This document shows positions 21,001-27,000 of a stretch of DNA of 64,000 nt, piece after piece. Numbering within the stretch: position 1 is the stretch's first letter; the number at the start of each line of letters is the position of its first letter. Made by a program: the position numbers. Origin of the DNA: a plasmid; NCBI RefSeq assembly GCF_054482525.1, contig NZ_JBTHVG010000003.1, one strand, 5' to 3'.

Positions 21001-24000
21001 GTCTATGCAGCGGCCGTTAGTGAAACCCGGGTGCTCGATGCCTGGCTTTGCTGGCCATGCTACCCGGCGAACTGGTAACGCGGCCGTTGGAATTGCACCG
21101 GCCGGATACGAATTTAACCGACCCCGTGGCGGGAAGGCTATCAGAGTTGCATGTCCTCATCCCTCAAGCCCCCTGCCAGGCCCCAACGTGCTGTCAGGCT
21201 TCGCCTGATTCCCGATCTGCGCCGATACTTCAGCCGATAACTTTTTGTTTTCTTTTTATTTTCTTCCCATTTCCTCAAAAATCGCGGGCGGCGTGGACAG
21301 GGCACCATTGCCGCATGTGGGGTCTTAATAAGGGCAGGGTGGTCAGTTTTGCTCGATGCCAGGGTTAGGCCCTCCCCTTCATGGGATGAGGACATGCAAG
21401 TAAGCTAACTATCTGAAATGACGAAGGTTCATTTGGTGAATGTCGCTTCATATTAATGTTGTGTCACTTATGATCGTATGTAGCTGGTTGCAAAGAGGAG
21501 CGATGAGACAATAAAGTTGTATCGCTAACAAGATTTATGCTGCCACATAGTAACAGCCTAAAAGTTGTACGCCCTATTTAACAGCTTTTAGGCTGTTAAT
21601 TTGATATTACAGCTTTTAGGGTGTATGTTTAGGAAACAGCCTGCAAGGTGTATCAGAGGAAACTACTGAGGCCAGCTTATGATCAATAATGATTACCCGT
21701 TAAACACGCTCAACCAGCTGCGTCCCTTGCTCATTGGTTTTCGCAAGGCGAATGGCCTGACGCAAAAAGACCTGTCCGAAAGGTTAGGCGTCACTCAACA
21801 GACATACTCACGTCTGGAAGCCAACCCTGCCAGTGCGAGCATTGAACGGCTATTCAAGGTGTTTTCCATCCTGGGCGTAAAAATCAGCTTCTCCTCGGCA
21901 ACCACCTCTTCAGAGAGGAAGCAGACGGAAGAAATGCTTAAATCAAACTCACCTGCACGACAGGAGGATTGGTAACGATATGAGCCGGAAACAGCAACGT
22001 CTGGTAATTTGGATGAACGGCATCAAAGTCGGGTACTGGGAAAAAAGCAAAGGGGTAGACAGCTTAGAATACCTTCCTGAATGGGTTGCTGACGAACAGG
22101 GAAGGCCGCTGTCATTGTCCCTTCCTTTTACTCCCGGGAACCAGGTCTGGCGTGGAAATGTGGTACGTGACTATTTTGATAATTTACTGCCGGACAGCGA
22201 AGGCATACGCAGACGTCTGGCAATGCGTTACAAGGCCGATAGCCTGGAGCCTTTTGATCTGCTGACGGAGCTGGGAAAAGACTGCGTGGGCGCGATACAG
22301 CTGCTTCATGACGGAGATGAACCCACTGATTTATATTCCGTGAAGTATCACCCGCTTACTGAATCAGAAATTGCGGCAACTTTGCGTAATACCACGGAGA
22401 CATTGCTACCGGGCAGGCCAGAAGATAACGACGACTTACGTTTATCTATTGCCGGTGCTCAGGAGAAAACAGCCCTACTGTGGCATGAAGAACGGTGGTG
22501 TATGCCGGAGGGTAATACACCAACGACGCATATATTCAAGCTACCGCTCGGACTTGTGGGGAACATGAAAGCCGACATGAGCTCGTCGGTTGAAAATGAA
22601 TGGCTCTGCTCGGTACTTCTCGGCCAGTACGGGCTCCCCGTGGCAAGAACGCAGATTGCTCACTTTGAAGATCAGAAAGCGCTGGTGGTAGAACGTTTTG
22701 ACCGAAAATGGTCAGGAGACGGACAATGGATCATTCGTTTACCCCAGGAGGATATGTGTCAGGCCCTGGGCGTTTCGCCATTACGAAAATATCAGGCGGA
22801 CGGCGGGCCAGGTATATCGGAAATTATGGAGGTTCTGAGTAATTCAGACCGTGCTGAGCGTGACAAAGCGCAGTTTTTTATGACGCAGATAATTTTCTGG
22901 ATGATGGCCGCAACAGATGGCCACGCTAAAAATTTCAGTATTTCTATTGGGCCACAGGGACGTTATCACCTTACACCAAACTATGATGTGTTGTCGGCAT
23001 GGCCGGTGATCGGTCATGGGAACAATCAGATATCCTGGCAGAAGTGCAAACTGGCGATGGCCGTACGTGGCAGTAGCAACTATTACCAGATATATCGAAT
23101 ACAACGACGCCACTGGATCAGGCATGGTGAGATAACCGGCCTGAGTAAACAGCAGACAGAGGCGATGATAGAGGAAATCATCGCCAGAACCCCGGGTGTC
23201 ATTGAACGTGTTAGCGGGCTTCTTCCGGACCAGTTCCCCCAGCAGCTTGCGGAAAGTATTTTTGATGGAATGAGGCAGCAATGCAGGCGCCTGGCTGAGA
23301 AATGACAGCCGCAATTTATAGTGTGCATGTTTTCAGAATAGCTGATGTAAGCGTGAGGATTCAGTATGACTGAAGAACAAAAAAGAATAGAGCGGGCTAT
23401 TGAGTTGGCTTGTCGTTACGGCGGAACCGATGAAATGCATCATCTGCAATGGGTCGTGGATCAGATGGTAAGAGAACTTGCTGGAGAACGTTATGCACAG
23501 ATTGTAGCTGATGCCACCAGCGGAGAAGATGGGCCTGATACTTACAAATGGAGTGTTGGGATCGCGCCTTAACAGCTGTCGGTCTGGGGGTGAAAACGTA
23601 TTCTTCATTCAGCGAATTCCCAGGCTTCACATTAAGACTAAAGCGGCGGCCGCAGTAACGTAAGAGAAAATAAATGGCTATTTTAGCAATCATTGCAGTT
23701 ATCGCCCTGGGTGGGTACGCCTACGGATTTATTAAAACCCGTGAGCTGAGCGCTTTGCGTAAAGAAATGAAACTATACGTGGATCGCATGGAAGCGGCGG
23801 AGCTGGACTTACACGCAATCAGAAGTGTAGCGGAGCACCGGTTGCACGGTGCAGGTAAACAGTTTGCCGACCTTTACAGCCGTATCGACGGTGCAACTGT
23901 GACGCTGACACCCGAAGATCAGCTGTTACTGGCAACGATGCCATTTAATATTCAGGATGTAGAAGACATCGTAAACGAGCGCGGTCCAAAGACAATTAGC

Positions 24001-27000
24001 GGCCGTCCATTCTGGGAAGTTGAGCCAGGCCCGCATGATTATGAATATGGCCCGCAATATCCGTATTTCCCAGACCAGCGCTAGGAAGAGATCAAGATGA
24101 GAGAGCCAAGACCACGCCATACCTTGCAGGTCATTCGTGTACCTTCTCTGGAGGTTCAGGACCTGGGGCTGACCAGCTTTGATAGCTGGCTTGACGAGCA
24201 CGGGTATGACAAAACGAATGCCAGAAATAACCGTACCATCTGGGCGAGAGAAGGCGGATGGCATCTGAAACGTTGCAGAAATCTTGAAACTGGCACGGAC
24301 GATTTCTGGTTTATCGCTTTCGATGGTAAAGGCGGGAAGATTTACCCGCTGAAAACCCAAAGAGACTACCGGGCTGCATATCGTAAGCTGGAAGCAGAAG
24401 GTTATGCGCCTGCGGTCATCGAGCAAATGACCACAGGCGCAGCATATAACCTGGCCTATCCACGTTCCACCCTAAAACAAGCTGAGACGGCCACCAGCGA
24501 GCCAATTCGGAAACCTGACGTAGATATCCAGGGTGAGCACTGCGAGCGCGTAGTGACGCAACGTAGTGGCGTGGCACAGGGTAAATTCAAAGCTCTGCTC
24601 ATCGAGAATTTCGCAGGCCGTTGTGCGGTAACCGGTTGGGTTAATGGAGGTGTCCTGGATGCGGCACACATTGAACATGGAACCCGGTACAATCCGTCTA
24701 ATGGCATCCTGATGACTCCAACAATGCATGCGCTGTTTGATGCCGATCTTATGGGCATAGATCCGGCCACCCTGACCGTTCATTTTAAGCCAGGCATTGA
24801 GGTGGGCGAGCTGTTTGAAGGCCGTAAAATCACACCGCTGGTGTACGATCTGGACTTAGAGCGGCTGGCCGTACGCTGGGCAGAATACCAGGGCCTTGCT
24901 CAGGACCAATGAAGGGTGACAGCCAGGTTGTGCCTAAACCTGGCAGTAAAACCTGCATGCCACAAACCTTTAAATTCTGACTCAAGAGCCTGGCACAAGA
25001 TAAAAGCGAAATGAAAAGGTTAAAACCGGTGCACCAGACCTCTTAGGTTTAATACCTGAGCCAGTATACTGGCAGTCTCAGGTAAGTGGGTATCATACAC
25101 TTCAGAAATATCCACACCGAGATAACCGCAACAGTTAAAGAGCTAAAAAGGACGGTTTTAATTTTATGAATAAAACAGCTTTAATTATGATTCTGGGAAT
25201 CCTCGGATGTGGTAAAGCATTTGCAGCCACTGAATTACAGCTCCAGCAAAAACGCGTTATGCATTTCTGTGCCAATGCCAGCCTTCCGTTGTTGATTGCC
25301 GGTACAACTTATGCGAATACGTCTGACAATGGACGACCAGAAAAAGAAAGAGTGGCAATCCTGAAAAATTCAGTTGCAAGCTCGACAGCTTATAAAATGG
25401 CATCTCCCGGAGTTCAGATGGCCATGATGAGCGTGGTGGAAGATATTGCCGATCCGAAAGAATTAGCTCTACATCAAAAAGAAGTTAGACGTCTTGGGGC
25501 TAGTTATCTTTCCGACAGCGGTGTTTCATGGGCTTCAAAAACTGTTTCACCATTTACAGCCTGGTGTAACTTTAACCGTTTAGAAAGTTAAGGCTGGCAA
25601 GGCGGTTCCTGTTCAGGAAAGTTACTTTCCGTGCGGGGACCGTAAGATACAGATAAAGCTTAAGGCCTTTGAATTTTTGGAAAGCATTTGAAAATTTCAT
25701 TGCGCTTGTCTGATATGAAACAGCCCTGCATTTCTGCAAAGGCTGAAAGAGTGTGTACGGACTTTGGAAGGAGTGATGATATACGCCTGAGCCATCCCAT
25801 CACCGCAGACAGGGTAATTAACCCTGACTAAAGCTTTCACCTATTCCGTCGCTCGCAAGCGGCTTTCGCACACTAACGAAGGTATGGCCTTTCGTCGGTG
25901 TTAAATTTTTCGGCTATTTGCAATCTGAGGTTGGATTGTAGATTTTAGTTAGAAATGGATCAAAGTCCGTTTTGTGCAAAACTTGGTTGACAACCCTCTT
26001 TTGGATGATGTGCCGTTTCGTGCAAAAGTTGGTTGGAGGCCAAGATGGCAGAGTTCGTAGGTTCGGCTGCTTCGCAAGCTGATTTCATTTGGAAGAACGC
26101 GGAAGACCTGTGGGGGGGGGATTTCAAGCATACCGACTTCGGCAAGATCATTTTGCCGTTTACCCTGCTGCGTCGATTGGAGTGCGCACTGGAGTCTACA
26201 CGGGAAGCATCGCTCGATAGCCAACCAGCCACGATTGAGTTCTTAGAAGCAGAGTTCAGTGTTGATTTCGATGCGCTGCTATCTTGACCGCCAATCAGAC
26301 CCGCATGGTTCAGGTTTGTGTATGAGAGTCCCCAAATGGCTGTAGTTCTAACCAAAGCCTTGATTGAAGCCGGCCGCACCGGAAATAGTGGGTACAGAAA
26401 AAAGCAGTTGCTTGCGCTGGGCGTAAGTAACCCGCCGAAAAGCGGCTGGATCGAACGACTGATCGGCACTGAGGTATCTGACGAGCAGTACGAACGCTTT
26501 CTGGGGCACAGCACGAGCAAGCTGCATATTCCGGTCGAAAATGAACACCTATTCCGGTTTAAAATGAACGCTGATTCCGGCTTGCGTGTACACCGATTCC
26601 GGACACCTCAGTGCACGTACTCTGATGTCAGATGAACCGTCCTGTTCCAACGTCTTGGATCCACAACTGCCGCGCTGCGCTTGGCTGCTGGCTTGTTCAG
26701 TGAGTCGAAAAGATGCCTCCCCTCAAAGCTCAGCTTCTGCTCGAAGAATCCCTGTCCGCATACTTTCCGGAATCACTGTTCAACTTCACCGGAATACGCA
26801 CAAGCAGGCTGAACAGATCCTACGCGGAGAGCAGCCAGCCAAGGGGCTTCAGTATGCAAAGCGAGCGAAGAAGCTCGCTTCTGAAAGAAAAGCCACAATT
26901 GATCTGGATAACGAGCACCTGTCTGAAATCGAAAAGTATCGGTAGCCCTAGACTTTTAGCCGCTGAAGATCTCTTAGATACCATTGGTGAAACTTGCTGA

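Follow-up and report, generated by a model that had tools for sequence, protein, structure and literature searches.

The sequence analysed here, referred to as the window, is a stretch of 64,000 nucleotides from a plasmid (NCBI RefSeq assembly GCF_054482525.1, contig NZ_JBTHVG010000003.1) and represents the backbone of an IncHI2 conjugative resistance plasmid. Just after its hipA gene lie three closely spaced open reading frames (ORFs), the last of which encodes a protein with an HNH_2-type nuclease domain, here called the HNH protein. A preliminary description had presented these ORFs as one three-gene unit. The analysis below concerns the HNH gene, its relation to the two small genes upstream, and its likely role.

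Three genes downstream of hipA

The three ORFs were found exactly where the preliminary description had placed them:

23366..23572, plus strand: ORF1, 68 amino acids, acidic and soluble; hypothetical protein in RefSeq
23674..24084, plus strand: ORF2, 136 amino acids, with one transmembrane helix, at the N-terminus, and acidic towards the C-terminus; hypothetical protein in RefSeq
24097..24912, plus strand: HNH gene, 271 amino acids, two-domain HNH_2 protein; RefSeq WP_001572439.1, "HNH endonuclease signature motif containing protein"

Gaps of 60 nt separate hipA from ORF1, 101 nt ORF1 from ORF2, and 12 nt ORF2 from the HNH gene. The hydropathy profile agreed with the earlier view of ORF2 as membrane-anchored: the Kyte-Doolittle mean over 19 residues was 2.23 at residues 2-20, and no second qualifying segment was observed in the protein. 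Dozens of homologs were recovered for each of the three proteins. The Nei-Gojobori ratio of nonsynonymous to synonymous substitutions (dN/dS) against diverged copies was 0.054 for ORF1, 0.16-0.17 for ORF2 and 0.074 for the HNH gene (IncHI1 copy). Because of these many homologs and low ratios, the three ORFs are real genes under purifying selection and not chance ORFs. ORF2 homologs had 44-99% identity and came from Enterobacterales in every case with a named organism. ORF1 gave a weak match to phrog_23179 (E 6e-4), and neither ORF1 nor ORF2 had a match among the PADLOC-DB v2 models.

The 1.7-kb region with the three ORFs matched 286 E. coli records (284 genomes), and 291 of the 295 places at which it was found were on plasmids, of ~150-270 kb. 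PLSDB typing of example plasmids gave IncHI2A, MOBH and MPF_F. The HNH gene was 100% identical in IncHI2 plasmids.

The HNH gene occurs without its upstream neighbours

The PLSDB counts were 1249 plasmids for ORF1, 1142 for ORF2 and 1297 for the HNH N-terminal domain, with an identity of at least 95% in nearly every case, and the three genes were found together in roughly 1100 IncHI2 plasmids. This co-occurrence reflects the conservation of a clonal backbone, in which all genes co-occur, and is no evidence of coupling. ORF1 and ORF2 were searched by tblastn against 33 loci, and the contexts of ORF1 and ORF2 homologs were looked up reciprocally. The non-IncHI2 loci with HNH homologs were L002-5, L006-9 with R27 and L028, L016-17, L018, L022-23, L025-27 and L033; in these eight contexts, with HNH identities of 38-82%, no ORF1 or ORF2 homolog was found within ~6 kb. 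Full-length homologs with 79-82% identity were located on IncHI1-type plasmids including R27, with unrelated genes upstream, and those with 38-42% identity in integrated elements, beside integrases, a helix-turn-helix regulator or a Fic/Phd pair. The HNH contexts are accessory regions of mobile elements, beside toxin-antitoxin systems, integrases and genes of a defence type, such as CTD7/MC3/LmuB_C (L002) and Fic/Phd (L016).

The reciprocal look-ups gave five contexts of ORF1 or ORF2 homologs from which the HNH gene was absent. Homologs of ORF2 without the HNH gene or ORF1 were observed in a chromosomal island (82% identity), on an IncFII plasmid (62%) and on a phage-like contig (44%; L024, L010 and L011, respectively). 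An 85% homolog of ORF1 lies beside mazEF, without ORF2 or the HNH gene (L012-15). Another, with 60% identity (L030:5001-5207), lies on a phage-like contig among short genes just 5' of those for both terminase subunits, small and large, again without ORF2 and the HNH gene. Because of this position upstream of terminase genes, ORF1 is a small gene shared by phages and plasmids. In two of four independent contexts, ORF2 homologs adjoin genes or gene fragments for SRAP (SOS-response-associated peptidase; L010:5001-6162 and L024:4241-6411), which may hint at a recurrent association of the ORF2 family with SRAP.

A system of three components, in which the HNH protein acts together with ORF1 and the membrane-bound ORF2 in defence or as a toxin, for example with a membrane sensor or immunity protein controlling the nuclease, would fit the common strand, the short gaps without a convincing terminator (only 12 nt from ORF2 to the HNH gene) and the joint occurrence across IncHI2. 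The native region upstream of the HNH gene has also been replaced in IncHI2, so the gene is probably transcribed from upstream. However, the joint occurrence is limited to a near-clonal backbone (at least 95% identity), both the 79-82% and the 38-42% HNH homologs lack the two partners, homologs of ORF1 and ORF2 occur singly elsewhere, and PADLOC matched neither of them. A three-gene operon was therefore rejected on the tblastn search of the 33 loci and the reciprocal contexts. As far as gene neighbourhoods can tell, the three-component system is largely refuted, and we regard it as very improbable. ORF2 and the 141-amino-acid ORF downstream of the HNH gene were each considered as an immunity protein and rejected, as no homolog of either was found beside any diverged HNH copy. 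The 135-amino-acid gene found downstream in IncHI1-type plasmids is unrelated to the 141-amino-acid ORF of the window.

The three-gene unit of the preliminary description is thus contradicted by the eight contexts without ORF1 and ORF2, by the five reverse contexts and by the R27 synteny described below. Outside the IncHI2 lineage the HNH homologs stand alone, with no conserved neighbours. They are not housekeeping nucleases, a possibility that the same description had raised, since all of them are on plasmids or integrated mobile elements, the latter in Enterobacterales. ORF1 and ORF2 appear from these comparisons to be unrelated small neighbours of the HNH gene rather than conserved partners, and we hold with considerable confidence that the HNH protein is a stand-alone, two-domain nuclease and not part of a three-gene unit. 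ORF1, ORF2 and the HNH gene should accordingly not be catalogued as a three-gene defence system.

Origin of the arrangement in IncHI2 plasmids

The IncHI1 plasmid R27 carries an ortholog of the HNH protein (WP_001209044.1, 150,679-151,485; by position R0168) with 79% amino acid identity and the same two-domain architecture. Both genes occupy the same backbone slot, between a conserved 130-amino-acid gene and hns. With blastn, window positions 20657-21399 aligned to R27 152906-152165 at 89.5% and window positions 24098-24884 to R27 151484-150698 at 75.5%, with no similarity in the sequence that lies between these matches. What separates the plasmids is a block of four genes:

21400..24097, plus strand: IncHI2-specific block of 2.7 kb (hipB, hipA, ORF1, ORF2), which replaces 0.68 kb of R27 sequence directly 5' of the HNH start codon
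21679-21975, plus strand: hipB, part of the IncHI2-specific block
21980..23305, plus strand: hipA, with a HipA_C match at E 3.6e-51

Because of this synteny, the HNH gene appears to be ancestral to HI plasmids, with hipBA, ORF1 and ORF2 placed upstream at a later time. R27 was reportedly sequenced in 2000, so the HNH gene has long been in the databases, where its annotation gives only an HNH signature.

Consensus scans for promoters and terminators gave matches at chance level (6 vs 4.8±2.4 and 6 vs 4.5±1.9), and in the 12 nt that separate the HNH gene from ORF2 the same scan found no convincing terminator. Beyond the HNH stop codon there is an unremarkable hairpin, with a z-score of -1.8 and no U-tract. 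Since the replaced stretch reaches up to the HNH start codon, and since ORF2 lies so close, read-through transcription from ORF2 into the HNH gene is likely in IncHI2, although this linkage is not conserved in evolution. The hipBA-ORF1-ORF2 block probably now supplies transcription of the HNH gene in these plasmids, as a local accident without functional coupling.

One relative of the HNH protein, P0130, has an odd N-terminus that resembles the translation of window positions 21048-21170. It was considered as a new repeat element and is explained instead by a deletion: P0130 is a deletion variant in which the region after the conserved 130-amino-acid gene is fused to the HNH gene, which fits the R27 synteny.

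A second HNH_2 gene was observed nearby, at ~30601-30939 on the plus strand of the window, at L006:7380-8090 and L025:7640-8515, and at 149,397-150,107 in R27. It is paralogous to the HNH gene in the nuclease module alone (28-32% identity) and encodes 236-303 amino acids in IncHI1-type plasmids, but in the IncHI2 window it is a 112-amino-acid remnant. Near hns, HI backbones therefore have, or once had, a pair of adjacent nucleases of the N-domain/HNH_2 type that differ from each other.

Architecture of the HNH protein and its nuclease module

The AlphaFold2 model of the HNH protein has two confident domains, with a mean predicted local distance difference test score (pLDDT) of 85.7. The parts of the gene, all on the plus strand, are the following:

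24109..24456, plus strand: N-terminal domain, amino acids ~5-120; presumed sensor or DNA-recognition domain
24457..24546, plus strand: inter-domain linker, amino acids ~121-150; pLDDT 55-70, with residues 125-134 below 50
24547..24894, plus strand: C-terminal nuclease module, amino acids ~151-266, with a helix (Q161, F164), a beta-beta-alpha-Me core and a C-terminal extension
24622-24762, plus strand: HNH_2 Pfam core, amino acids 176-222; codon of H191 at 24667-24669

The family PF13391 (HNH_2) matched amino acids 176-222 over profile positions 1-66 of 66, with 30.6 bits against a gathering score of 21. This score, together with the catalytic His-Asn-His residues, places the protein in the HNH_2 family. 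The motif quoted for it earlier, CAVTGW...AAHI...NGILMTPTMHALFD, was found at amino acids 176-215. The positions conserved in at least 90% of a 50-sequence alignment were Q161, F164, C176, G180, A189, A190, H191, N202, G203, H211, F214 and D215. Because the catalytic residues H191, N202 and H211 are conserved to this degree, the active site appears to be intact. The predicted strand-strand-helix at 188-215 has a pLDDT above 90, and the near-invariant Q161 and F164 are carried by the helix 153-171.

The nuclease was correctly placed at the C-terminal end by the preliminary description. The unrecognised part had been given as the first 170 amino acids; it comprises amino acids 1 to ~125 and the low-confidence linker, as phrog_23050 matches amino acids 139-266 (E 1.5e-37) and the conserved module, from amino acid ~139/150 to 266, exceeds the Pfam core. 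The linker is less constrained, with a dN/dS of 0.18, compared with 0.066 for the N-terminal domain and 0.060 for the nuclease domain. Many enterobacterial proteins of 460 amino acids share the nuclease half alone, with 52-60% identity. PADLOC models matched this half only: PDLC04132 "HNH" (E 2.2e-8) and PDLC03546 "Type II restriction enzyme" (E 3.4e-3). These are generic HNH-domain models, and no anti-phage system of PADLOC-DB v2 was matched.

The N-terminal domain

The N-terminal domain had been called unrecognised, and the searches bear this out: neither a family of Pfam, NCBIfam, PADLOC or PHROG nor a structure in PDB or BFVD was matched. The structure prediction that had been proposed for this region gave a well-folded domain without a known reader fold. 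A model of the domain alone had a pLDDT of 85.9, a predicted template modelling score of 0.79 and the topology beta-beta-alpha-alpha-beta-beta-alpha-alpha-alpha. Foldseek against BFVD returned nothing at E<1e-3, sequence and profile searches of PDB and Pfam were empty, and no SRA, PUA/EVE/ASCH/YTH, winged-helix, sulfur-binding (SBD) or McrA-N fold was matched. As far as these tools reach, the predicted domain appears to have a fold without a solved relative.

The domain is rare. An exhaustive HMMER scan of 1.84 billion representative proteins with amino acids 1-145 gave 26 matches at E<=1e-3. The domain was present in roughly ten sequence clusters and was fused only to HNH_2. All the genuine, non-fragment relatives that were checked (P0017 and P0126-P0130) have HNH_2 downstream. 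Some relatives carry an additional N-terminal extension of 180-260 amino acids, and one has two HNH modules. A phage origin of the domain was considered and rejected, as a tblastn search of 50,697 phage records gave no match. The domain has 18 invariant positions, often with an aromatic residue or glycine; they include W31, Y37, D38, W49, G54, W55 and H56 as well as F70, W71, G77, G79, G80, Q88 and Y91. The domain is mildly basic (isoelectric point ~9 in most members) and rich in aromatic residues, which fits nucleic-acid binding.

Residues 26-83 of the domain also matched three proteins, P0134, P0135 and P0139, with E ~1e-10 as the sum over 5-14 repeats. All three are adhesins of the BapA kind, built of Big_9/cadherin-like repeats, and have in common with the domain a short beta-hairpin motif, G-T-D-x-F-x-[FY]-x-x-x-D-G-x-G-G, which is amplified by repetition in the adhesins. 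Homology to adhesins was set aside, as the predicted fold is not Ig-like and the match is a repeat-amplified local motif. Judged by the model, it probably represents a local resemblance rather than a remote relationship.

Selection, dispensability and disruption

Deletion 15 of R27 (150,566-156,499) removes the HNH ortholog. Among the 18 deletions obtained, only deletion 16 reduced the stability of R27 (PMC4853401, main text and Table S2). The HNH gene is dispensable, because deletion 15 removes the ortholog without a stability defect. The ortholog is also absent from the table of low-temperature-responsive R27 genes (PMC7366339).

At least three independent disruptions of the HNH gene were observed in sequenced plasmids (L019, L032 and L033). 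They comprise an IS4321-associated heavy-metal transposon at codon ~143, an IS26-bounded aac(3)-IV/aph(4)-Ia module at codon ~82, and an N-terminal truncation in an IncHI1B/IncP hybrid. Together with the 1.7-kb region being covered to at least 80% in 228 of the 286 matching E. coli records, so that about a fifth cover it incompletely, the independent insertions of the IS4321-associated transposon and the IS26 module could indicate a decaying remnant without current function. This is contradicted by a dN/dS of ~0.07 over both domains between the IncHI1 and IncHI2 copies, at saturated dS, and by catalytic residues that are intact and a reading frame that is intact in most plasmids. Decay is hence extremely unlikely.

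The long standing of the gene in HI backbones, beside hns and the second HNH_2 paralog, could instead point to a role in plasmid biology: attack on competing plasmids at conjugative entry, recombination or repair, or a selfish, homing-type nuclease. R27 is nevertheless stable without the region (PMC4853401), and the ortholog does not appear in the low-temperature expression table (PMC7366339). Relatives are also found in non-conjugative integrated elements, and the insertion into a host gene that is typical of homing endonucleases was not seen. Such a role is in our view unlikely. Because the gene is selected and yet expendable, autonomous and unpartnered, its pattern fits that of a conflict or defence gene.

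Other features of the window

Around the HNH gene the window carries hipBA, the tellurite (ter) cluster and a plasmid copy of hns, together with an orphan cytosine methyltransferase and a resistance region rich in IS26. Three further genes were delimited:

25166-25591, plus strand: 141-amino-acid ORF 3' of the HNH gene, with a lipoprotein-like signal peptide (MNKTALIMILGILGC...)
~38857-40284, minus strand: orphan DNA cytosine-5 (C5) methyltransferase, also kept in R27 (141,140-142,567)
~40499-41014, plus strand: thermonuclease-family gene, also kept in R27

The methyltransferase and the thermonuclease-family gene both bear on the possible targets of the HNH protein. The 141-amino-acid ORF belongs to no Pfam, NCBIfam, PADLOC or PHROG family. 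Immediately 5' of hipB, a promoter-like site is overlapped by an inverted repeat of 23 nt (87% complementary) and by two direct repeats of 21 nt each (ACAGCTTTTAGG[CG]TGT), all within 21546-21624. These repeats are probably HipB operators; they differ from the hipBA operator consensus of E. coli K-12.

On the minus strand at 26948-29988, a UvrD-family helicase (679 amino acids), with GajB-like PADLOC matches down to E 1.5e-51, overlaps by 4 nt the gene of a 334-amino-acid protein that begins with a zinc ribbon like that of CoiA_N and matches DruB weakly. The two may form a two-gene defence pair. A homolog of the CoiA_N-like protein is present without the helicase in IncHI1 (R27, L006). At ~26045-26266 on the plus strand, a fragment of the M subunit of a Type I restriction-modification (R-M) system was observed, which has the N-terminal domain only. 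This fragment, annotated by RefSeq as a pseudogene, is what is left of an R-M system once encoded in this accessory stretch.

A putative single-gene restriction enzyme

The explanation that we consider best is a stand-alone nuclease acting in modification-dependent, Type IV-like restriction, and our confidence in this combined reading is evenly balanced. The N-terminal domain would recognise some property of foreign DNA, of which a modified base or backbone not present in Dam/Dcm-methylated hosts is the most plausible. Recognition would license the HNH module, in which H191 as the general base, with N202 and H211, would cleave the DNA. In this way a methyltransferase-independent Type IV barrier would protect plasmid and host against phages or rival mobile elements. 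Taken by itself, the Type IV reader-HNH mechanism, which is drawn by analogy, has a slightly less than even standing. That the N-terminal domain represents a new class of DNA-feature reader, targeting the HNH nuclease to invading phage or plasmid DNA, is a tentative proposal that we consider rather doubtful.

Enterobacterial hosts are Dam+ Dcm+. Because of this, and because the plasmid carries a C5 methylase, ordinary 5-methylcytosine (5mC) or Dam N6-methyladenine is an unlikely target, and hypermodified phage bases, phosphorothioate and foreign methylation contexts are the candidates. No methyltransferase gene was found within ~6 kb of the HNH gene in the window or in the other contexts. Lutz et al. 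(2019) treat absent nearby methyltransferases as an argument for modification dependence of sensor-HNH enzymes (PMC6765204). A nuclease that persists without a conserved immunity partner must also be intrinsically restrained, we infer.

Several points weigh against this explanation. No functional study of the HNH protein or its homologs was found in the literature. The N-terminal domain is never fused to another nuclease type, unlike promiscuous reader domains, and its model rests on 14 fairly similar sequences. The structural matches to VcaM4I and TagI, described in the next section, are weak (E ~3e-3, TM ~0.3) and driven by the HNH half. Finally, the orphan C5 DNA methyltransferase 8-14 kb away makes a 5mC-dependent specificity awkward and leaves a classical R-M reading open.

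In this R-M reading, the HNH protein would be a classical restriction endonuclease of a Type II-like kind, with the orphan methyltransferase of the backbone as its protecting enzyme. Both genes are kept in IncHI1 (in R27 at 141,140-142,567 and 150,679-151,485, respectively) and in IncHI2, and the weak PADLOC match to a Type II restriction enzyme (E 3.4e-3) agrees with it. R-M partners are normally adjacent, however, whereas these genes are 8-14 kb apart on different strands, and HNH homologs in five non-HI contexts have no methyltransferase within 6 kb. As both are backbone genes, their co-occurrence is uninformative. A Type II-like enzyme is therefore quite improbable.

If modification-dependent restriction by the HNH protein is true, the globally spread IncHI1/IncHI2 resistance plasmids carry a built-in, single-gene barrier. 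More than 1000 sequenced plasmids carry the HNH gene, and in E. coli, Salmonella and Enterobacter the IncHI1/IncHI2 plasmids are major carriers of mcr-1, extended-spectrum beta-lactamases and multidrug resistance. Active restriction would then shape which phages and rival plasmids enter plasmid-bearing cells, which bears on phage therapy and plasmid epidemiology. The N-terminal domain would add a recognition module to the few reader domains of modification-dependent enzymes, with use for epigenetic tools.

Comparison with known systems

The best PDB matches of the whole model in Foldseek were VcaM4I (6yex) and TagI (6ghs), with a probability of 0.94-0.98, followed by Cap5. TagI and VcaM4I belong to the TspA15I group of modification-dependent (Type IV) restriction endonucleases, in which an SRA or PUA/EVE reader at the N-terminus is followed by an HNH domain at the C-terminus (PMC6765204). 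The HNH protein is like them in size (~270-310 amino acids) and in its predicted order of a non-catalytic N-terminal domain, a linker and a C-terminal HNH_2-type nuclease, and all are stand-alone genes without an adjacent methyltransferase. Compared with reader-HNH Type IV enzymes as a class, the model likewise predicts one chain in which a non-catalytic domain of its own precedes the nuclease, the two being well folded and set apart by the low-pLDDT linker. No methyltransferase is adjacent, the orphan C5 enzyme of HI backbones being 8-14 kb off. A known modified-DNA reader fold was not found.

The activated effector of cyclic oligonucleotide-based anti-phage signalling (CBASS) offers a different model. 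Cap5 (SAVED-HNH, PDB 8fmf) is a sensor fused to an HNH nuclease that is held inactive until a signal arrives, and its HNH half is similar. In a corresponding abortive-infection mechanism, the N-terminal domain would bind a small molecule or phage protein, and indiscriminate DNA cleavage would kill the cell. The high rank of Cap5 in the structural comparison of the nuclease half, the N-terminal domain without a DNA-reader fold, and the tolerance of the gene without an immunity gene, so that the nuclease is kept off by default, all speak for such a mechanism. Yet the HNH protein lacks a SAVED domain and a neighbouring cyclase or CD-NTase, no cyclase or signal generator is adjacent in any context, domain order and size differ, and the similarity covers ~115 aligned columns in the HNH half. 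The N-terminal domain is also small (~120 amino acids), unlike SAVED, CARF or other known ligand sensors. The protein is accordingly not a CBASS Cap5, and activation by a signal is an unlikely mechanism.

For modification-dependent restriction, EcoKMcrA gives a precedent of an idiosyncratic reader domain on an HNH nuclease. It is enterobacterial and borne on a mobile element, and its N-terminal domains, "not homologous to SRA domains", are reported to sense modified cytosines while C-terminal HNH domains cut (PMC6182155). It differs in that the sequence of the HNH protein matches no PDB chain, including McrA, and in that the N-terminal domain here has no fold match. ScoMcrA-type SBD/SRA-HNH enzymes (PMC7461809) have the same kind of HNH_2 module after a conserved GQxxFR helix, and the family NF045808, "phosphorothioated DNA-binding restriction endonuclease", gave a weak match at amino acids 160-224 (13.7 bits against a 180-bit cut-off); the HNH protein differs from them in lacking a sulfur-binding or SRA domain. 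Its R27 ortholog differs from the window gene in its setting, without hipBA, ORF1 and ORF2 upstream. END nucleases show the same modular combination of sensor and nuclease (PMC12191111). The sensor-HNH design is a familiar one, seen in defence nucleases, whereas the presumed sensor domain itself is undescribed.

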